Under the pieces are notes generated by a model. It did not search any database. It was not told the DNA's origin and saw only the letters and a list, made by a program, of their open reading frames with translations. This document shows positions 40,566-59,848 of a DNA stretch of 64,000 bases, in pieces (positions within the stretch are counted from its first letter, which is position 1; the number at the start of each line of letters is the position of its first letter). Location of the stretch: contig JBEGVZ010000026.1 in NCBI GenBank assembly GCA_041178085.1, positions 1-64,000 of the forward strand, read 5' to 3'. The position numbers were made by a program, and so were the translations under genes. This DNA is from Pseudomonadota bacterium (lineage in GTDB: Bacteria > Bdellovibrionota_B > Oligoflexia > Oligoflexales > RGVZ01).

Positions 40566-40581
40566 CCGGATGGCCCGGGGT

Positions 40582-42507
40582 ATGAAAATGTCAATTGGTG
40601 AAAAAAAATTTCGCCGCTCGCGTGCGGGTGTGGTTGCCGCTCTGATTGCGACGGCGTTCCTGCAGCAGATTCAGGCTTGTGGGCCGGCATTTCCAGATAC
40701 CGGACCGGGTGGAAATCCGGTCGACCCATCCGTCAGTCCCGGGCGTGACCGCGGCTATTTCGATCTTAGTGGCGAAAATGCCCAGCCACCCCCGCAAAAA
40801 AATGTTCCGGGCTCCTGGATCGTCGCCTTTCGTGCCAATGCCGCCCGCGAGTCATTGCATTTTGCAAACTTCGCAATGGAATCGCGCTTTCATCAAACGA
40901 CGCTGTCACGCTCTTTTGCATCGGACCCAAGGGTTAGGTCGGTTGATTTCATCACGGCACTCGACTTGTCGTCGCCAGAAATCGGATCGGAGTTGTCGGG
41001 GCTTCTGACGGGTAACGGTGTTTTTGGGGTGTTGCCTCCGCCCTCTTCAGTGGCTGCGGTTGCGAAGGTTGATTTTGCCTCGGATGACGAGGCGCGTTCT
41101 GTGTTGGGAGAGTGGGAAGCTGCGGGCAAGACATGGTTTGCAGAAGCCAACGGTATCAGTGATCTTTATGGCACGCTGGATGCCGCCGACGAGACTTTCA
41201 AAACCTGGGCAGCAGCTTACGACAAGACTGTCGTGCCCCACCTTGCGGTGACCAAGGTCGCCGCGGCTTTGGCCAGGTTTACCAATCCGGATCCTGAAAA
41301 GGACCTGGACAAGCCCGGTAATCAGGACATCCTCGATTCTCCGCCGATCATCGCAGTGATTGACAACGGCGTGGATTACGCGCACCCCCAACTGAAGAAT
41401 CAGATCTTCGAGAATCCCAGCCCGGGATCAAGTGGATGTTCAGACGATGTGCACGGATGCAATGTGACCGCAATGAAAGGCGGCAGCCTTGGCAACGGGG
41501 CAGTCTTGCCGGATGGTGTTTCCGGCGAGGGGCAGCCTTGTGATGGCGAAGATCGCAAATGTCCCCATGGAACCCACGTGGCCGGGATCATCGCGGCCGA
41601 GCCCGACGTTTCCGCAGGCACGGTCGGTGCCCCGGCCGGAGTCTGCCCGTTTTGCAAGATCCTGCCCGTCAAGGCGACTTCCGCTGGTGGTGGCATCACC
41701 GATGCGTCGCAACTTGCGGGTTTGAAGTATGTCTCGCTATTCAGGGGGCGGTACGGCAACGCGATCCGCGTTGTGAACGCCTCCTTTGGGCAGTTCACCC
41801 GCAACCGCGCCATCGCGGTCATGGTTGCAACGTTGCGCAGAGCCGGAAACGGAATTGTGGTCGTCAGCGCGGCAGGAAACGAGGATACCATGTTGCGGGC
41901 TTATCCCGCGGCACTTCAGGACGCCGTCGCCGTAGCTGCCCTTGACTCCAATAACTCCAAGGCATCGTCCAGCAATTTTGGCAGCTGGGTGGATATCTCG
42001 GCTCCTGGTGTCGAGATTGAATCAACGGCACCGGGCGGCGGCAGCGTCCCCAAAAGCGGCACATCCATGGCCGCGCCGGTGGTGGCAGGCGTCATGGGGC
42101 TCATGGTGGCATACAAGCCAGGCATCTCGGCGGCGGATCTAATCGGACGCATCACGTCGACGGCGGATCCCGGCATTTACCGGGGAGACGATGAGAGCAA
42201 TCTCAATTACCGTTTCTACTACGCCCGGATCGGCGGTGAAGTCGTCCCGCGGCCCTTGCTGGGAGCCGGTTTGGTTCAGGCGCAGGGCACTTTGCAGAAT
42301 GTTCCCACTGGTGCCTTCACTTCAGCCAGAATCCAGCGAGTGACACCAGGCTGTGGCATCGTTTTCGATCCGCAGGGTAAACCGCGGAATTCCTGGGATC
42401 TGGGTTTGCTTGCCTTGTTGTTGGTTGCTCCGTTTTACGCGGCTAGTCGCCATGCACGCCGGGCCTTGCGCGCACAACGCCGCGTAAAGGAGGCCCCATG
42501 GGGGTAA
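40582..42507 (+). CDS. S8 family serine peptidase (subtilase) with C-terminal membrane anchor
   Basis: Catalytic triad VIDNG / HGTHVAG / GTSMAAP. C-terminal GCGIV...LLALLLVAPF..RHARR anchor. TATAAT at 40557. Confidence 0.92.
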   Translation: MKMSIGEKKFRRSRAGVVAALIATAFLQQIQACGPAFPDTGPGGNPVDPSVSPGRDRGYFDLSGENAQPPPQKNVPGSWIVAFRANAARESLHFANFAMESRFHQTTLSRSFASDPRVRSVDFITALDLSSPEIGSELSGLLTGNGVFGVLPPPSSVAAVAKVDFASDDEARSVLGEWEAAGKTWFAEANGISDLYGTLDAADETFKTWAAAYDKTVVPHLAVTKVAAALARFTNPDPEKDLDKPGNQDILDSPPIIAVIDNGVDYAHPQLKNQIFENPSPGSSGCSDDVHGCNVTAMKGGSLGNGAVLPDGVSGEGQPCDGEDRKCPHGTHVAGIIAAEPDVSAGTVGAPAGVCPFCKILPVKATSAGGGITDASQLAGLKYVSLFRGRYGNAIRVVNASFGQFTRNRAIAVMVATLRRAGNGIVVVSAAGNEDTMLRAYPAALQDAVAVAALDSNNSKASSSNFGSWVDISAPGVEIESTAPGGGSVPKSGTSMAAPVVAGVMGLMVAYKPGISAADLIGRITSTADPGIYRGDDESNLNYRFYYARIGGEVVPRPLLGAGLVQAQGTLQNVPTGAFTSARIQRVTPGCGIVFDPQGKPRNSWDLGLLALLLVAPFYAASRHARRALRAQRRVKEAPWG

Positions 42508-44186: not shown

Positions 44187-45389
44187 ATGGTTGCAAAGCG
44201 GAAACTGTTATCGTTGTGTCTAGTCATTTCAGCTACCGGGATTTCGTGTAAAAGCCTGGATGTAAGTCCCGATTCCGCTGACGTGAAAACCCTGGAAAAT
44301 TTCGCTGCCGGTGAGACGATCATCGAGAATGCTTGTGGCGCGGACCGCCTGTCTGATCCGATTGACGACAACGTAGCCGGGCTGATTGAGGGTCTGAGCC
44401 TGGTTCAGGCCAGTGAAAGCCGCAAGGAATCGCTGGCGACGGCAATGGGCTCCATGCCGGTGAACCTGCTGAACCTTTATTTCGCGACGGGCAATCGTAT
44501 CGTCGTCTCGGACAAAGCCTTCGACGGCAAGTCGGACGAAGGCATTGATGACTGCCAGATTGCCCGGCGTCAGGGCAGGGTGCTTGACGGGCGCGTCCGC
44601 ATTTCCGGGCGTCCTGAGCTCGAATCCTGTATCGTTTCGGAGAGCCAGGGCGACGGCCAGGTCCGCCTAGGCATCTACATCAAAGACAACGATGCTGCGA
44701 TCCGTCATGCGCTTGTACGCAGGATGAGCCAGGCAGTATCCATGCACCTCTCCCGCCTGGTTGCGGATCAAGAGGGCAAGCCTGCAATTGGTGAGTTTGA
44801 AGACGAATCTTTCGTGGGCTGGAAGTCTTCCCTTCTTACAGCCCTGGACAAGGACATCGCGGCGTTGCCAGCTGCTTCGACCAGCAATTACCGGAAGTTG
44901 CGTTCAAGTCTCAAGGCAGCTGAACTTGGCCATTACGCATTTGCCGAGGCGATGGACTCCTTCTACTGCAGTTCACGGACTCGCGAAAACATGAAAGCAA
45001 AGTTTCCAAGCGCCCATGCTGGATTCCTCGAACTGGACGCCGAACTTCGTCAGATCTGGTCCGAGCAGTCCCTCGATACGAAATCGACAGAGCTTGCCCT
45101 CGGTCCAGTCGGTCGGGTCCTTGTCGGTGCCGGGCGAGTCGGGATGTTTGCCGCGCGCGGAGTCGGCCGGGTAGGATATGGTGCTGCCCGCGTTGGTGCT
45201 GGTGTGGTTCGTGGCACCGGACGTGTTGCCTTCGGTGCAGCACGGTTCGCCGCTCGTGGAACAGGTGCTGTGATTCGCGGCGGTGCGAATGTGATCCAGG
45301 GCGTCGGTTCCGGAGTTAGCAACGCGATTGAGTACCGTCGTGGCTCCGGTTACGTGTTTCCCCGCATGCACGGTGTCTATCGTCGCTAA
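44187..45389 (+). CDS. Lipoprotein with ATLF/LFn-like domain and Gly/Arg-rich C-terminal tail (paralog of 58394-59848)
   Basis: Lipobox GISC. MPVNLLNLYFATGNRIVVSD and FAEAMDSFYCSSRTRENMKAKFPSAH blocks. ELAL followed by a 95-aa tail. Confidence 0.7.
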   Translation: MVAKRKLLSLCLVISATGISCKSLDVSPDSADVKTLENFAAGETIIENACGADRLSDPIDDNVAGLIEGLSLVQASESRKESLATAMGSMPVNLLNLYFATGNRIVVSDKAFDGKSDEGIDDCQIARRQGRVLDGRVRISGRPELESCIVSESQGDGQVRLGIYIKDNDAAIRHALVRRMSQAVSMHLSRLVADQEGKPAIGEFEDESFVGWKSSLLTALDKDIAALPAASTSNYRKLRSSLKAAELGHYAFAEAMDSFYCSSRTRENMKAKFPSAHAGFLELDAELRQIWSEQSLDTKSTELALGPVGRVLVGAGRVGMFAARGVGRVGYGAARVGAGVVRGTGRVAFGAARFAARGTGAVIRGGANVIQGVGSGVSNAIEYRRGSGYVFPRMHGVYRR

Positions 45390-52557: not shown

Positions 52558-52781
52558 TTTGCGATTCCTTTCCCTTTGCAGACTTTCTTTTTTGGGAAAG
52601 GTCAGAGCCAAAATTGGCATTTTTGCAACATCTGGCCAGAACCCTTGTTTGCGGCGTGGTTTCCCTTGATTTTGACGGCGTGAAAATCTTGGCCAGCTGG
52701 ACAACAAATTTTGCCTACCCGTATAATTTTGAATGAATCCCGGACAATCTTCCTGAACACGCCGACTTTTTGGGGGTTTTC

Positions 52782-54926
52782 ATGCGCCTGTTAACCATGT
52801 GCCGCACCCACTGGCTGGTTTTCCCGGCAATTATTGCCGCGCTGACCGCGACTGTCGTTTCAGCAGCTCCGCTGAAAACATTCAACCTCGACAAGGAGCA
52901 TGTCCCTGGCCAGCTGATCGTGAAGTTTAAGCGTGGCGCATCGGCCGAGAAATCCGCACTGGGCGTGCTGGCAGGTTATGGTGCATTCAGTGCCATTCCG
53001 TTCTCGCGGACTGGTGCGATGAAGGTAACCTTTCCGGGCAAGGAGTCTCGCAACTCACTGATGGCCGTTGCGCAGCAAATTGCGTCACGCCCTGACGTCC
53101 TGTACGTCGAGGCGAACACCATCATTCGCATGGATGCAAAATTCCCCAACGACCCCAACTTTGCGCAACTCTACGGCATGCACAACGATGGCTCAACGGG
53201 CGGCACTGCAAATGCAGACATCAACGCTCCAGAGGCGTGGGAAGTTTCGACGGGTTCGAAAAATGTTGTGGTTGGCGTGATTGACACAGGTATTGATTAC
53301 ACGCATCCAGACATTGCCCCGAATTACTGGACCAACCCGGGCGAGACGGGAACAGACAGCGAAGGCCGCGACAAGCAGACCAACGGCGTTGACGATGACA
53401 ACAACGGTTATGTCGATGACTTCCGCGGCTGGGACTTCGTCAACAATGACAATGATCCGATGGACGACAACAGCCATGGTACCCACTGTGCTGGCACCAT
53501 CGGCGGCAAGGGCAATGACGGGGTCGGTGTGGTCGGTGTCAACTGGGACGTCAGCCTGGTCGGGATCAAGTTCCTCTCTGGCGGCGGTTCTGGAACCCTC
53601 GAAGACGCAGTCAAGGCGATTGAGTACGGGACAAAGATTGGCGTCCAGTTGACCAGCAACAGCTGGGGCGGCGGCGGCTTCTCCGACACCATGGCAGCGG
53701 CGATTGCCGAAGCGCAGTCAAAAAACATCCTTTTTGTCGCCGCAGCCGGTAACAGCAGCGCTGACAACGACTCTGACCCGCATTATCCATCTTCGTACGA
53801 TCACGATAACGTCATTGCAGTTGCAGCAACTGACAACAAGGACGGCATGGCTTACTTCAGCTGCTTCGGTTCGACGAGTGTTGACCTTGGCGCACCAGGC
53901 GTGGACATCCTCAGTTCGATTCCGGAAGGTCACGGTTACACCAAATACAGTGGAACCTCGATGGCGACCCCGCATGTGGCAGGAGCCGCTGCACTTGTGA
54001 AGTCAGCATTTCCTGAGCTGAATGCTGCTCAGGTCAAGGCTCGCCTTCTCAATGGCGTTGACCAGGTCCAGTCTCTGCAGGGCAAGACGACCACTGGCGG
54101 TCGCTTGAACCTGGAAAACTCTCTTGAAGTAGACTCGATTGCCCCTGGCGCGGTTGCCGGGATCCGGGCAGTAGGTGCTACCAGGGATTCGGTCACCTTC
54201 AATTTCACTGCGACCGGCGATGACGGCGACTCCGGCCTTGCGAAGGGCTACGAGGTCCGTATTTCATCGACGCCGATCACCGATGCAGAGGGCTGGGCAG
54301 CTGCACGGCGCGCCAAAGCTTCTTTTTCGGTCAATACAGACACTCGCGAAGCTTCGGTTGTGATTTCGGGTCTTGATTTCAACAGCCAGGGATACCTCGC
54401 GATTCGTGCGACGGATAACGTGGGCAACATGAGCAGCCTTTCTGCTCCGGTACCCTACGCGGTGCGCCAGGTCCAGGTCGTCGCCCGCAATACGGCCAGC
54501 TCGCTGGCTGACGTCGTCGCCACTGGTACATGGGGCGTTGAAGATGCACCAACCAGTGAGGATCCAGACAACAAGGTGTTCTCTGACAGCCCCGGCGCTG
54601 ACTACCCGTCCAACAACGACACTAGCCTGACGCTGCCAGTATGGAACGTCTCCAAGTCTGATTCATCGCTTGTCGTACGCATGCGCTGGAACCTCGAGAA
54701 CCGTTATGACAACGGATCCGTGGAAGTATCCACGGACGGCACGACATGGACCGCGCTTGACACACTCACTGGTGATAGTGGTTGGGTCACGCGGCAGTAC
54801 GACCTCTCGGGCGTACTGGCATCGAGCCAAACGCTCCAGGTCCGCTTCAAGCTGACATCAGATTCATCCATCGACCGCGACGGATGGTTCATCGATGATG
54901 TGATGGTGGTCAGTTCGATCGACTGA
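52782..54926 (+). CDS. Secreted S8 serine peptidase with FN3-like and beta-sandwich C-terminal domains
   Basis: Signal peptide, propeptide (VPGQLIVKFK), VIDTG / HGTHCAG / GTSMATP triad, DDDNNGYVDD insert, DGWFIDDV terminus. Confidence 0.93.
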   Translation: MRLLTMCRTHWLVFPAIIAALTATVVSAAPLKTFNLDKEHVPGQLIVKFKRGASAEKSALGVLAGYGAFSAIPFSRTGAMKVTFPGKESRNSLMAVAQQIASRPDVLYVEANTIIRMDAKFPNDPNFAQLYGMHNDGSTGGTANADINAPEAWEVSTGSKNVVVGVIDTGIDYTHPDIAPNYWTNPGETGTDSEGRDKQTNGVDDDNNGYVDDFRGWDFVNNDNDPMDDNSHGTHCAGTIGGKGNDGVGVVGVNWDVSLVGIKFLSGGGSGTLEDAVKAIEYGTKIGVQLTSNSWGGGGFSDTMAAAIAEAQSKNILFVAAAGNSSADNDSDPHYPSSYDHDNVIAVAATDNKDGMAYFSCFGSTSVDLGAPGVDILSSIPEGHGYTKYSGTSMATPHVAGAAALVKSAFPELNAAQVKARLLNGVDQVQSLQGKTTTGGRLNLENSLEVDSIAPGAVAGIRAVGATRDSVTFNFTATGDDGDSGLAKGYEVRISSTPITDAEGWAAARRAKASFSVNTDTREASVVISGLDFNSQGYLAIRATDNVGNMSSLSAPVPYAVRQVQVVARNTASSLADVVATGTWGVEDAPTSEDPDNKVFSDSPGADYPSNNDTSLTLPVWNVSKSDSSLVVRMRWNLENRYDNGSVEVSTDGTTWTALDTLTGDSGWVTRQYDLSGVLASSQTLQVRFKLTSDSSIDRDGWFIDDVMVVSSID

Positions 54927-55919: not shown

Positions 55920-58175
55920 TCAGTTTTCCTGGAATGCGACGTCTGGGATCACTTGGCTTTGCAGCAACCGGACCGTGAAAGAGGAGCGGCCTGCTGGCAC
56001 GGACTTCATTTTCGTCTTGCCGGACCACGTGAGCGAGTGCTGAAGGCGGTCATGGTTCCAGGAGGACCATTTCTCCTGGAAGTACCAGGCCGCCACAACT
56101 TTGCTGGTCTCAAATTTCTCAGCATTCTGGATCGTAACTCCACCAAGGCGCTGGTTTGCCGTGATGGTGATGGATTCGTCGTCATGGGCGTTGACCTGGA
56201 GTGCGCCTTTCTGTTCGGGCGCATTGGCCTGTGTCAAGAGTTCCTCCAGGGTGTAGGTCCTGGCGATCCGGCTGAAGTTTATCCGCAAACTGGCTTTTTC
56301 TTTTGCCGTCGGTGCTTCCCGCGAGGCCAGCAACTCGGAGATTTCAGACTCTTGCTTGCCCCACACATAGAACGCCCAGTTGAAGGGATTCCACTTGGAT
56401 TCGTAAACGTAGGCGCGGGGACCTGCGAGTTCGTTCGGGGTGTATTCGTTGATTCTCCGGCCCCAGTCGACAAGCTGCGGGAACTCAAGGCTGACACCGT
56501 CACGTTGCTGGACCTCAAGCAGTCCAGCCTTTGAGAAATAGACCGGATCTTTCCTGGAAATTTCCGGGCGGAAGAGCTTCCGTTCAGGAACGATGATCGT
56601 CAGGGTCTGGTCCTTATCGAGTTCGACGCCGAGATTTTGGGCTTCGACGCCAGAACTCACTTCCATTGTGCGTTCGTCGGCAGATCCCACCTTCCCGGAG
56701 ATCATCCGTGAGCGCGTGGTAGCAGTTTCGGACACAAGTTTGCCCAGGATCCGGTACTGGATTTTGGAATCTGTTTGCGAGCGCAGGAAATCGATCACAG
56801 CAGACACTTTGAACGCCATCGGTGCGAGCGGATTGCGGGCAGGCTTTTTAGCTGCAGGTTGCTCGTCTTCCGCATCATCCTCTGACCTGCCGGCTTTTGG
56901 TTTTTCTTCAGCTCCCGATTCAGTCGTTTTTTCCGCCTTTTTTTGATCTTCATCTGCTGCCTGGTTTGCAGTCAGAGATGACGTGCCCCGGATCACCCGG
57001 TCACGAATGCTGGATGAAGGACGGTCGACGTCCCACGGATCCTTCTTTTTTACTTTTTCCTCGTTGTCTTCTTCGTCATCTTCTTCGTTATCGTGCGTGG
57101 TTCTGCGGGAATCACTGTTTCTGCGATCAGTTTCGCGGGTGGTTTTGCGGCGGGTGGTTCCGCTGGAGTCTTCATCATCGCGGTCGTCCCGTATCGTGCG
57201 GGATTTGTTGGCATCAGCCGCCATAAGTTTTTCCGGGCTGATTTTCTCCATCATCATCTTGATCAGGGCGTTTGCTGCTTCAGAAAGTTGGTCGGAGTCC
57301 GACTCGATGACTGCCTCTGCGCTGGTCGTGCGGATTGCGTCCGCCAGCTTTGATTTCAACTCGGACTCAAGCACAACGCCTGCATTGACCGGGCCATCGT
57401 AACCAAGGCTGGACTGAAGTGCGCTGGCAACAGCTTTGCCGTTGAACGTCATGCTGCCAAATTCGCGGGTCTCCCGCGCTTCGAATTTGAGCGATGCCAC
57501 CAACTGGATGCCCAGGCCGCGGCTGAGCTTTGAGAGCATGCGCTGGGAGTCCGGTTTGCTGAGCTCGATGGTTGAGCTGATTGTCTCGCCCAGCCAGGTC
57601 GTGAGGTCTGTCCCGTCCGGAGAAAGCATCACCGGTGTTCCGATCCCGTCGATGCGCATCTCGATGTTTGTGATTGGCAGTGGCGACAGAGACCAGACTT
57701 TGTTTTCCGGCTGCTTTAGCTCTTCGTAGTGCTTGTTGATCGAATCCCGCAATTTGGTGAAGTTACATGTATGGGCGAAGCGCTCGGACTCAGTCGGGCC
57801 ACCGACGATGTTTCGTGACTCGGTGCCGCGATGGAGGTTGACGGCAAAGTCGAATGCGATGTTACCGTTGTCCAGGGGCAGCAGCTTGATCGATGTCTTG
57901 TTTTCAAGGTCCCGTGCCAGAGTGACTTTCGGGATCACGAAGTAAGTACCACGGAAGCGCTGGGTTCCCTGCAGGATGTGGTAGTTACAGTCGATTGCCA
58001 CATCTATGGGAACGGGGTCGAAGGAGACTCCGTCCGCCGCCAGGCGTGCGCCATCTTTGTTTGCGAAGTCTGCGGGGCCTCCGCAGCTGCTCAGGTTGAT
58101 ACTCAGGATTGTAGCCAGGATCAGGAATGGCCTGGTTGCTGTCACTGTCGCCTTGGAACCGAGGACGCTGCGCAT
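55920..58175 (-). CDS. Large hypothetical lipoprotein with central charged low-complexity region
   Basis: 751-aa ORF with lipobox LSSC and GGAG RBS. No family recognised. Confidence 0.7.
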   Translation of the reverse strand: MRSVLGSKATVTATRPFLILATILSINLSSCGGPADFANKDGARLAADGVSFDPVPIDVAIDCNYHILQGTQRFRGTYFVIPKVTLARDLENKTSIKLLPLDNGNIAFDFAVNLHRGTESRNIVGGPTESERFAHTCNFTKLRDSINKHYEELKQPENKVWSLSPLPITNIEMRIDGIGTPVMLSPDGTDLTTWLGETISSTIELSKPDSQRMLSKLSRGLGIQLVASLKFEARETREFGSMTFNGKAVASALQSSLGYDGPVNAGVVLESELKSKLADAIRTTSAEAVIESDSDQLSEAANALIKMMMEKISPEKLMAADANKSRTIRDDRDDEDSSGTTRRKTTRETDRRNSDSRRTTHDNEEDDEEDNEEKVKKKDPWDVDRPSSSIRDRVIRGTSSLTANQAADEDQKKAEKTTESGAEEKPKAGRSEDDAEDEQPAAKKPARNPLAPMAFKVSAVIDFLRSQTDSKIQYRILGKLVSETATTRSRMISGKVGSADERTMEVSSGVEAQNLGVELDKDQTLTIIVPERKLFRPEISRKDPVYFSKAGLLEVQQRDGVSLEFPQLVDWGRRINEYTPNELAGPRAYVYESKWNPFNWAFYVWGKQESEISELLASREAPTAKEKASLRINFSRIARTYTLEELLTQANAPEQKGALQVNAHDDESITITANQRLGGVTIQNAEKFETSKVVAAWYFQEKWSSWNHDRLQHSLTWSGKTKMKSVPAGRSSFTVRLLQSQVIPDVAFQEN

Positions 58176-58309: not shown

Positions 58310-58344
58310 AAAAACCCCAAGTTCAGAGGAACTTGGGGTGTTTT
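58310..58344 (-). terminator. Intrinsic terminator of the 58394-59848 gene
   Basis: ACCCCAAGTTC-agag-GAACTTGGGGT hairpin with a U-run on the minus strand. Confidence 0.75.
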
Positions 58345-58393: not shown

Positions 58394-59848
58394 TCAACCT
58401 CCCGTCATGACGGTACAGCTGCCACAAGAACCCCCGACGCCCCCCTGGCAAGATGAGCAGTCTCCTCCGCAGGCCATGCCGCCACCACAGTTGCCGCTAC
58501 CGCAGTTGCCTCCAGAACACCCGCTGGCTGCCAGGTTGCTAAAGATGCCGGCGTTCTTGCCCAGCTGGCCCGGGTTGATGCGATTTGCTTGCGGCGGCAT
58601 CAGGGATGGCAGGCCGCCACCGCCGCCGCCCCCACCGCCGAGCAATTGGCTGAACAGGGATGACAGGTTGCCGAGGCCCCCCGCGCCGCCGCCCCCACCG
58701 CCAAGCTGCCCCAGCAGCGGCATGAACATTTTCATCAAACTACCGATGTCGAAATTCAGGGCGAGTTCATTCTCTTTCGCTAAGGTGGGATCTGATCCGT
58801 CAAGGGCGAGGAAGCCGCTGCGCACTTCTCCCGGAGGGGTCGCGTTTCCCGTAAGTTCACGTGAAATTTGCAGCAGCGCCTGGTGCACCTGGTCGTAAAC
58901 CTTGTAGGAAGACGGGAAGTCGGCCTTCATCACGGCAAGCGACTCGCTGTTGCAGCTGAGTGATTGCTCCGCATGGGCAAGGAAGTAATCCCTCACCTGG
59001 CTGCGGCGCGCTTCAACGATTCCGGAGTCGAGTGTTCGCGATTCTCCGGCTCGCCTGAAGCTGACCAGATCAAGCAGCGAGGTTTTCGATTTTGCGGCAC
59101 GCAATTCAGATTCCACCTCTTCACCCATGATTGGTTTCAGCGGTGCAAGAGTGTACTTTTTCGATGCAAGGAGGTCGGCCAGGAACGCGTCAGCCAGTTG
59201 TTCCTTGAACGACACAAACTGCATGCTTTCTTTCTGGTTGATGCTGAAGCTGGCACCTTGCCTTGTTGGCGCGGCAAAGCGCGAGTAAAGCTGCGCGTAC
59301 AGGTAACCGAAGATTTGTGGTCCAAAGTAACGGATACGATCCGGGGAAGCGCTGTGGACAATCGTGAAGATCGTTTTCTGGTTTCCCTGCGGGTCGTCAG
59401 CGAAGACGAAGCAACCGTCAGTGATGTCTCCCGTCGTCTGCCCGCTGGCAGTCTGGGCGTTCTTGCAGTAGTCGCCAATTTTTGACGGGTCAGTGATCAT
59501 CACCTGGCCGCCAAGGGTGAGAAAAAGTTTCTGCATCGCCGGGTCGAGCGCAGAGAAGTAGTCTCGAACCGCTTTTTTCAGGGAGGCCTGTTCCTCGCTC
59601 CCCCTGCTCTGCAGGGAACTGCTCTTATCGAGGACGATCCGGTTATCGGGAATCAGAACCTCATTGTTGCCTTTGCATTGGTAAAGCTTGGTGATGCCAC
59701 CAGCTGCGACGGCATCCAAGGTCTTTACGGAGGAATCCTGGGACGCTTTGCACGATGCCAGGAACGAGCCGGCGAGTATCCCGGCAGCTGCAACCTTTAA
59801 CAGACCCGAAAACCCATTGGTGTCGGAAATTGTCGAGCGCTTGCCCAT
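58394..59848 (-). CDS. Lipoprotein with ATLF/LFn-like domain and Gly/Cys-rich C-terminal tail (paralog of 44187-45389)
   Basis: Lipobox LASC. LDPAMQKLFLTLGGQVMITD and FLAHAEQSLSCNSESLAVMKADFPSSY blocks. ELAL followed by a 120-aa tail. GGAGG RBS. Confidence 0.7.
   Translation of the reverse strand: MGKRSTISDTNGFSGLLKVAAAGILAGSFLASCKASQDSSVKTLDAVAAGGITKLYQCKGNNEVLIPDNRIVLDKSSSLQSRGSEEQASLKKAVRDYFSALDPAMQKLFLTLGGQVMITDPSKIGDYCKNAQTASGQTTGDITDGCFVFADDPQGNQKTIFTIVHSASPDRIRYFGPQIFGYLYAQLYSRFAAPTRQGASFSINQKESMQFVSFKEQLADAFLADLLASKKYTLAPLKPIMGEEVESELRAAKSKTSLLDLVSFRRAGESRTLDSGIVEARRSQVRDYFLAHAEQSLSCNSESLAVMKADFPSSYKVYDQVHQALLQISRELTGNATPPGEVRSGFLALDGSDPTLAKENELALNFDIGSLMKMFMPLLGQLGGGGGGAGGLGNLSSLFSQLLGGGGGGGGGLPSLMPPQANRINPGQLGKNAGIFSNLAASGCSGGNCGSGNCGGGMACGGDCSSCQGGVGGSCGSCTVMTGG

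Follow-up and report, generated by a model that had tools for sequence, protein, structure and literature searches.

A Cys/Gly-rich tail on an Oligoflexia lipoprotein with a predicted inactive lethal-factor-like fold

Peptides of Cys/Gly/Ser-rich composition are common among ranthipeptides (SCIFF), sactipeptides, MNIO-modified peptides and metallothioneins. Here we analyse such a peptide at the C-terminus of a lipoprotein, P0001, encoded on the minus strand of a 64,000-nucleotide stretch of DNA (the window; contig JBEGVZ010000026.1, referred to as C26) from an Oligoflexia bacterium (assembly GCA_041178085.1; source genome G000, 3.0 Mb, 96% complete); other P and L numbers designate relatives or loci. 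A sequence-only reading had suggested that the tail is a disulfide-knotted, metal-binding or trans-modified peptide fused to its carrier. We arrive, with about even confidence, at another reading, in which P0001 belongs to a family of escort-plus-payload lipoproteins and its tail is an old disulfide-rich payload.

According to the relevant part of PMC12943098, domain I of anthrax lethal factor binds protective antigen and has no HExxH motif, and domain I of Certhrax likewise has none. In the polymorphic-toxin survey, as far as the sections of PMC3482391 on these domains go, lethal-factor-like domains appear as active C-terminal toxins with HExxH and not as N-terminal lipoprotein carriers. The polymorphic lipoprotein toxin SitA of myxobacteria, according to the relevant part of PMC8546572, always shares its operon with an immunity gene; its proteolytic release from the anchor has been proposed, and its nucleases are delivered by TraAB outer-membrane exchange. 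Finally, the NHLP/Nif11 peptides treated in the corresponding part of PMC2887384 are cytoplasmic precursors of short length which contain a Gly-Gly site and whose genes cluster with those of YcaO or LanM and of a peptidase-ABC exporter.

The Cys-rich tail of P0001

The segments, Gly runs and 8-Cys core noted in the sequence-only reading are indeed present, all within one ORF (58394-59848, minus strand), which is organised as follows:

58394..59848, minus strand: ORF of P0001, a 484-aa lipoprotein of the family with a predicted dead ATLF-fold carrier and variable tails
59750..59848, minus strand: Sec signal peptide and lipobox predicted from the sequence, with Cys33 as the lipidated residue
58844..59731, minus strand: carrier domain, aa 40-335, with the lethal factor domain I / Pro-Pro endopeptidase (PPEP), or ATLF, fold in the structure model
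58802..58816, minus strand: [FLM]-small-L linker motif, copy 1 (GFLAL, aa 345-349)
58757..58768, minus strand: ELAL, aa 361-364, second copy of the motif and candidate recognition or processing site
58703..58753, minus strand: amphipathic segment 1, FDIGSLMKMFMPLLGQL, aa 366-382, of the M-P-L-L type
58676..58702, minus strand: Gly linker, aa 383-391
58640..58675, minus strand: amphipathic segment 2, LGNLSSLFSQLL, aa 392-403
58613..58639, minus strand: G9 run, aa 404-412
58526..58573, minus strand: helix predicted in the AlphaFold2 model, aa 426-441, N-terminal of the core
58397..58519, minus strand: 8-Cys core, aa 444-484 (41 aa), made of degenerate C-x-G-G-x units

The core includes 8 Cys, 16 Gly, 6 Ser and 2 Asn, and the lipobox Cys33 is invariant in 60/60 family rows. 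From one LAL motif to the next the distance is 15 residues (11 lie in between), and not 14 as had been stated. Segment 1 is modelled as a helix (368-380, at low pLDDT), and its M-P-L-L type pattern is found in 29/47 Cys-tailed members of the family as against 4/40 other members, while an F/Y-x-x-L-x-x-x-G-C pattern at the helix preceding the core is seen again in orthologues.

Comparison of sequences indicates that the tail is a real, conserved module, and that its core is under purifying selection in relatives. Among the 10,563 six-frame ORFs of at least 100 aa in G000, 43 contain at least 8 Cys in a 41-aa window, and P0001 is the only one that combines this with at least 30 C/G/S/N in the window. 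We also compared strains, using contigs of 4 of the 23 listed runs (X2, X4, X6 and X8); no RNA run is among the 23. In the contigs of X2, X4 and X6, which come from three studies that are not flagged as possibly being the source, the tail is in frame and no difference is listed within 58394-58519, so that the assembly or frameshift artefact envisaged for the GC-rich repeats did not materialise; the contigs of X8 do not reach the core. The G9 run is a G7 in X2 and X4 (an in-frame deletion of 6 bases) and a G9 in X6, and 8 of the 11 coding differences are synonymous. Orthologues of P0001 (n=18, 42-57% identity) have at least 6 tail Cys in 15 cases; the remaining three are considered below with the points that weigh against our reading. 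The dN/dS ratio of the core is 0.03-0.15 in the 5 unsaturated of 8 orthologue pairs, compared with 0.02-0.09 for the body (4 of 8 pairs) and 0.10-0.33 for the linker (7 of 8 pairs).

It could still be argued that the tail is a low-complexity artefact or a neutral read-through at the GC-rich repeats, since the sequence is of low complexity and its Gly runs also match unrelated contigs. This explanation is ruled out by the in-frame contigs from independent studies, the Cys kept by orthologues and the low dN/dS of the core, and we leave it a vanishingly small chance. The tail thus stands as a selected module fused to a conserved carrier, which supports the sequence-only reading in this respect.

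The carrier domain and its family

Judged from the structure model, the carrier, which the sequence-only reading had not named, folds as ATLF, without the zinc motif. The AlphaFold2 model of P0001 is confident across most of aa 50-335. When it was used as a Foldseek query, five matches at E 0.001 or better were obtained, all to anthrax lethal factor, and structural alignment superimposed aa 61-333 on lethal factor residues 32-260 (Z 12.1, rmsd 4.5, 200 aligned residues). An unbiased fold search against 48,161 chains gave the same family: the top 7 matches were all ATLF-type (Z 9.7-11.0, the next at Z 7.3), namely PPEP-2, Certhrax, PPEP-3, lethal factor (three times) and edema factor. The individual scores were Z 11.0 for PPEP-2 (rmsd 3.3, 164 aligned), 10.9 for Certhrax, 10.3 for lethal factor and 9.7 for edema factor, values which do not distinguish a domain of the inactive domain I kind from one of the peptidase kind. 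The HExxH motif was found in 0/87 family rows and in 0/17 bodies fetched later; given its absence from all 87 rows, the carrier appears to be a peptidase without catalytic activity, in the manner of lethal factor domain I. In addition, four Cys of the body (58, 128, 146 and 299) are invariant in 60/60 rows, a pattern compatible with two disulfides, the protein being exported.

This relationship lies in the fold. Searches of PDB sequences with family profiles gave nothing better than E 0.1 and there was no match to the Pfam ATLF family; P0001 itself has no Pfam match better than E 0.05 and no NCBIfam match. In the ESM Atlas the carrier led to zincin-like clusters, with all leads below 0.9. A complex predicted between the carrier (aa 40-336) and aa 342-384, which hold its own linker motif and the first helix, scored 0.02 against a mark of 0.32, in a run whose controls did not fold.

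By profile search, the carrier family occurs in 48/131 genomes of the class, with up to 16 matches each. The 112 sequences collected were reduced to 96 at <90% identity and then to 87 having both body anchor and tail, the 9 rows dropped being fragments or tail-less. The linkers of 74/87 members contain the [FLM]-small-L motif, as against 34.2 expected by shuffling, the pattern having been derived from the same 87 rows in which it was counted. It is also present in 15/17 later-fetched loci against 6.8 in shuffles; this later set comprised 20 loci, 3 of which lacked an anchor, and it includes relatives of rows already counted. At least two copies are found in 27/87 relatives, which bears out the proposal of a second, similar motif in tandem; literal ELAL occurs in only 3/87 rows, so it is the [FLM]-small-L core, and not ELAL, that the family shares. 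In P0047 and L070 the motif is placed, by eye, just before the terminal domain.

The tails behind this common carrier are diverse. Cys-rich ones make up 47/87, and the rest are Gly-rich helical, Pro/Gln-rich or long. CAP domains were recognised above cut-off (E 1.4e-9 and 1.3e-8), CAP-bearing members being G000:C68:13027 (L057) and also L087 and L089. Below the cut-off, tails matched ART-like (P0070, 8.4e-4), PT-TG (P0047, 1.3e-3) and TNT-like (L076, 3e-4) domains. Some further resemblances may be mentioned here: an HD-like end (E 0.04, below cut-off) was seen among P0070, P0047, P0042, L072, L076, L078 and L084; P0047 has, in addition to PT-TG, an end of no known match; and the ends of L072 and L084 look nuclease-like by eye, with no profile match.

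In a quick tree of the bodies, a moderately supported branch (SH-aLRT 91) has 44/45 Cys-tailed rows on the same side, and the tail label changes 7 times, as against 28.6 in shuffles. Because 44 of the 45 lie together, the Cys tail appears to be an old trait of a subfamily and no recently swapped cassette. We found no description of this carrier family in the open-access full-text literature; it is apparently undescribed, and P0001 would represent one tail type of dead-ATLF lipoproteins with polymorphic tails.

Chemistry of the core and the question of modification

The number of Cys per tail ranges from 6 to 14, and 47 tails display 42 spacing patterns, with four residues as the commonest gap (C-x-G-G-x-C); the Cys spacing that was to be compared among homologues is therefore not conserved. 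Even counts prevail (34/47 tails); the naive p of 0.003 for this bias is overstated because the rows are kin. In the 32-row clade to which P0001 belongs, its eight Cys columns hold Cys in 22, 25, 27, 8, 31, 23, 13 and 19 rows, respectively, the fourth being offset by one from a column with Cys in 29 rows. Where a Cys is lost, it is replaced by A/V/L/I/M/F in 42/71 cells as compared with a background of 12%, by Glu in 2/71 and never by His. Hydrophobic replacement of this kind favours roles in disulfides or packing, and the core may be better described as an inward-facing, disulfide-bonded repeat which gains and loses rungs than as a set of fixed modification sites or metal ligands. A disulfide-bonded state is thus the likeliest one for the tail, as had been suggested; the fixed knot that was suggested with it does not agree with 42 patterns in 47 tails. 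No DsbB was found in the search of G000, where a VKOR-DsbA fusion is present instead, together with a second DsbA-like gene.

A metallothionein-like sponge, in which the Cys would take up Cu, Zn or Hg on the surface of the cell, has to be considered, given that the cores are 28% Cys with <1% aromatic residues and many CxC, CxxC and CC pairs, and that a variable number of Cys is tolerated. Against it, the 1,552 core residues examined include 0 His, 8 Lys and 27 Asp+Glu, and lost Cys give way to hydrophobic residues. Moreover, the tail has no Pfam family at E 1, the protein is exported into an oxidising compartment, and no recurrent metal-handling gene was seen among the relatives' neighbours that were read. 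We regard metal binding, one of the earlier suggestions, as improbable. Free-standing relatives of the tail (66-210 aa) were not found among 160 candidates, in a search that is weak for low-complexity queries.

As a separate observation, G000 encodes an unrelated small exported protein (L054; G000:C75:2953-3405, minus strand) that combines a stretch rich in His with a long tail of Cys/Asp/Gly repeats; it looks more metallothionein-like than the tail of P0001 and has no Pfam or NCBIfam match.

The suggestion of modification in trans amounts to P0001 being the precursor of a ribosomally synthesised and post-translationally modified peptide (RiPP) with a giant dead-enzyme leader, as in NHLP, modified before export and cut at the motif. 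The layout does recall that of NHLP in the relevant part of PMC2887384: a dead enzyme, a motif and a hypervariable end rich in G, C and S. Some relatives read E-L-S-L-A-G-G, and GG follows 12/74 motifs; the other 62/74, that of P0001 among them, are without it. The enzymes expected of such a pathway were searched for in G000 and in family genomes. YcaO was found in 0 cases in G000 and in 0/22 family genomes above cut-off (control positive in 5/14), and MNIO (DUF692) and PqqD/RRE in 0 cases each in G000 with working controls; LanC/LanM also gave 0 in G000, with a control that was silent throughout; in the cores, Cys number 431 as compared with 292 Ser+Thr. MNIO is present in 2/12 Cys-tail family genomes (4/14 with G038 and G039) despite its occurrence in 62/95 genomes of the order.

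Of the 13 radical SAM enzymes of G000, 11 are housekeeping; the others are one B12/DUF4070 protein and one SPASM protein (297 aa), which reached no NCBIfam cut-off among the 25 best matches listed. SPASM proteins do not follow the tail, being found in 9/12 genomes with a Cys tail and in 8/10 without; with YcaO at 0/22, the proposed check for co-occurring radical SAM/SPASM or YcaO enzymes came out negative. That no maturase is encoded nearby was confirmed by reading the ORFs of the window, and none was seen, again by eye, in the ORFs around ~40 related loci, where other lipoproteins and housekeeping genes lie instead. Finally, the genome holds a secreted peptidase:

G000:C8:1091-1762, minus strand: stand-alone secreted C39-like peptidase (L068, 223 aa), kept in the genus

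It is the only C39 match above cut-off in G000 and is not of the peptidase-ABC exporter form. As a processing enzyme it was rejected, since it is present in 11/22 family genomes, three of which have no Cys-tailed gene, and in 4/12 of those which do (one query). On present evidence the tail would not be a RiPP, and no dedicated modifying enzyme appears to be needed. Such a precursor keeps a small probability because of the NHLP-like layout and the 12/74 motifs that precede GG; it could also be held in its favour that G000 encodes a SPASM protein, a B12 radical SAM enzyme and the secreted C39-like peptidase. Overall, we judge it very improbable.

Proposed working, genomic neighbours and known systems

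The following sequence of events is compatible with these data. P0001 would be exported by Sec and lipid-anchored at Cys33, as its conserved lipobox suggests. The dead lethal-factor-like domain, whose fold is predicted from the model, would then serve as a binding or escort module and not as a protease. The [FLM]-small-L motif in the loose linker would mark the border between carrier and payload, and would probably be recognised by a protease or other partner, which then frees the tail or passes it on. The Gly-linked amphipathic helices may engage the membrane, and DsbA/VKOR may oxidise the C-x-G-G-x core in the periplasm, giving a compact unit rich in disulfides whose repeats can vary in number. 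Interaction with other cells, either prey or competitors, is the likely purpose, to which toxin-like tails on other members of the family point. The observations extend to the modelled fold, the lack of HExxH, the shared linker motif, the varied tails and the selection on the core; that the tail is cut and oxidised, how it is delivered and what it acts on are inferred.

Several observations weigh against this reading. Odd Cys counts occur in 13/47 tails; among the orthologues, P0018 has lost all tail Cys but one, and P0003 and P0005 keep 4 each. Beyond aa 335 the AlphaFold2 model is unstructured, with pLDDT about 20-30. The linker motif is missing in P0012, P0013, P0015, P0016 and P0017 despite their Cys tails, and a stricter motif defined post hoc misses P0001 itself. 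Every toxin-family match lies below the curated cut-off, and 10/12 tails scanned in one batch gave nothing at E 0.1. Tail-less members exist (G000:C22:30428, L024 and L025), and therefore the carrier can act alone. To these must be added the age of the Cys tail within its subfamily and two negative results: no immunity-like gene is evident after P0001, where a hairpin is followed by the gene of a 751-aa lipoprotein, and no pore partner was found, the searches for protective-antigen-type families having had a silent control.

Many of the same facts would suit an envelope or surface lipoprotein that is never cut, in which the inactive peptidase domain would serve as a head that binds ligands, the tail is a structural part that touches the membrane and cross-links copies of the protein or its partners through intermolecular disulfides, and the motif is only a docking strand. 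The variable number and spacing of the Cys, with odd counts among them, agree with loose cross-linking, and so do, for an uncut protein, the tail-less members, the five Cys-tailed orthologues without motif, the vertical inheritance of the tail and the lack of an immunity gene beside P0001. On the other hand, CAP and toxin-like domains stand behind this carrier and motif in other members, the motif stands just before the terminal domain in two relatives, and even counts prevail. We consider this uncut form doubtful, although it is the main rival.

The escort-plus-payload reading can be taken further. In its boldest form, which we think rather unlikely as a whole, these proteins would constitute an undescribed, contact- or vesicle-delivered effector system of Oligoflexia: anchored dead lethal-factor-like domains would dock on a translocon or receptor, be cut at [FLM]-small-L and release interchangeable payloads, such as ART-, TNT- or nuclease-like domains, or, in P0001, membrane-active Gly-linked helices with a new type of disulfide-laddered C-x-G-G-x repeat. 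In the genus, the 751-aa neighbour could be the pore partner. The features downstream of P0001 are:

58314..58339, minus strand: terminator-like hairpin (11 bp and a T run) just past the stop codon, recognised by consensus match only
55920-58175, minus strand: 751-aa lipoprotein directly downstream of P0001, with no Pfam or NCBIfam match

The hairpin sets the gene of P0001 apart from the next lipoprotein gene; terminator-like sites number 4 in the region and 2.5 in shuffles. The 751-aa protein is encoded in 4/131 genomes, exactly the four of the genus that have an orthologue of the carrier gene; it adjoins that gene in three of them and in L058, and in L060 and L061 it stands one gene further away. 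The protein was modelled poorly (mean pLDDT 48.7, pTM 0.33). Residues 494-746 gave only generic beta-sandwich matches (best Z 8.0 over 82 residues) and contain long hairpins, while the N-terminal half yielded weak MACPF-like leads in the ESM Atlas (0.79-0.81). Pfam MACPF was found in 0 cases in G000, with a control positive in 1/14 genomes, and the protective-antigen-type families PF03495 and PF17475 likewise in 0 cases, PF17475 also in 0/95 genomes, with a control silent throughout. In the sister genus the 751-aa gene was not found, although carriers with Cys tails are common there; as a pore partner the protein is a lead only. In 20 other loci the ORF following the family gene is mostly at least 94 bases away; two short ORFs of 73-75 aa follow L075 at 3 bases and L078 at 38 bases.

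A profile search revealed six copies of the family in G000, with differing tails; besides P0001 they include:

44187..45389, plus strand: paralogue in the window with the same carrier and ELAL, and a Cys-free, Gly/Arg/Val-rich tail (profile E 3.6e-40)
G000:C68:13027-14802, plus strand: paralogue L057, combining a CAP domain with an amphipathic Gly/Leu module and a Pro-Gly linker
G000:C22:30428-31402, plus strand: tail-less paralogue L069

The CAP paralogue has a Gly/Leu module similar to that of P0001, and therefore this module appears to be shared and the last segment to be the variable part. Gly/Arg/Val-rich tails like that of the paralogue at 44187-45389 were also seen in L018, L019, L088 and P0051. 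As for the paralogues at G000:C21:3568-5565 (minus strand) and G000:C10 from about 10300, one has a long Gly/Ala-rich tail and one is cut by the contig end. Near both family genes of the window lie two exported proteins with subtilisin-type motifs recognised by eye (40570-42507 and 52770-54926, both plus strand), which are candidate processing enzymes. A short S/A-x-L/V-K/A/R stretch soon after the lipidated Cys, counted in 42/226 loosely predicted G000 lipoproteins with no control, is possibly a sorting signal.

If our reading is true, a dead ATLF domain, the docking module of the anthrax-type binary toxins of Gram-positive bacteria, also escorts lipoprotein payloads in a poorly studied Gram-negative class, which would bear on the origin of this toxin module and on the dealings of Oligoflexia with prey or competitors. 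This significance rests more on the carrier family, for which neither Pfam nor NCBIfam has a model, than on the tail of P0001 alone; the reading predicts that the protein is cut close to the linker motif and that the Cys/Gly tail is completely oxidised. The result also holds a warning for RiPP mining: not every Cys/Gly/Ser-rich C-terminus that follows a dead-enzyme leader has to be a modified peptide.

Compared with ranthipeptides, sactipeptides, MNIO-modified peptides and metallothioneins, P0001 has no cognate enzyme, no fixed Cys spacing and no His or Lys in its tail, and in contrast to ranthipeptide and sactipeptide precursors or metallothioneins its core is fused to a 440-aa exported protein instead of being part of a short cytoplasmic precursor or a small free protein. 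The likeness to NHLP/Nif11, in the corresponding part of PMC2887384, concerns the layout only, in which a dead-enzyme N-terminal part and a motif are followed by a variable, Gly/Cys/Ser-rich region; P0001 differs in having a Sec lipoprotein signal, no sequence homology to NHLP and no maturase that tracks the tail.

By analogy, P0001 would resemble SitA in its working and Certhrax in its fold, membership of neither group being established. With SitA, in the relevant part of PMC8546572, it shares the architecture only: a lipoprotein with an N-terminal escort domain of ~300-375 aa and a variable C-terminal module, in several copies per genome; it differs in that no immunity gene is evident at P0001 and that the tail is a Cys/Gly peptide. 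The carrier model has the same fold as the ATLF domains (PF07737: lethal factor domain I, edema factor and the N-terminal part of Certhrax) and PPEP-1/2/3, and the layout of Certhrax, in the part of PMC3000352 that describes it, is matched by the relative P0070, with its carrier and ART-like domain. Unlike the active PPEP enzymes, the carrier is without the HExxH zinc motif; from the ATLF proteins, to which it is 7-14% identical, it differs as a Gram-negative lipoprotein with a lipid anchor and predicted disulfides that is multi-copy and bears very diverse tails. There is no sign that P0001 acts on humans, animals or crops. A dead ATLF-like domain in another diderm is domain D2 of Leptospira LIC_20136, for which a role in protein-protein interaction is proposed in the relevant part of PMC12943098. 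That domain is part of a PilZ-like protein reported, in the same part of that paper, only from Leptospira, whereas the carrier described here defines a family of lipoproteins with variable tails.

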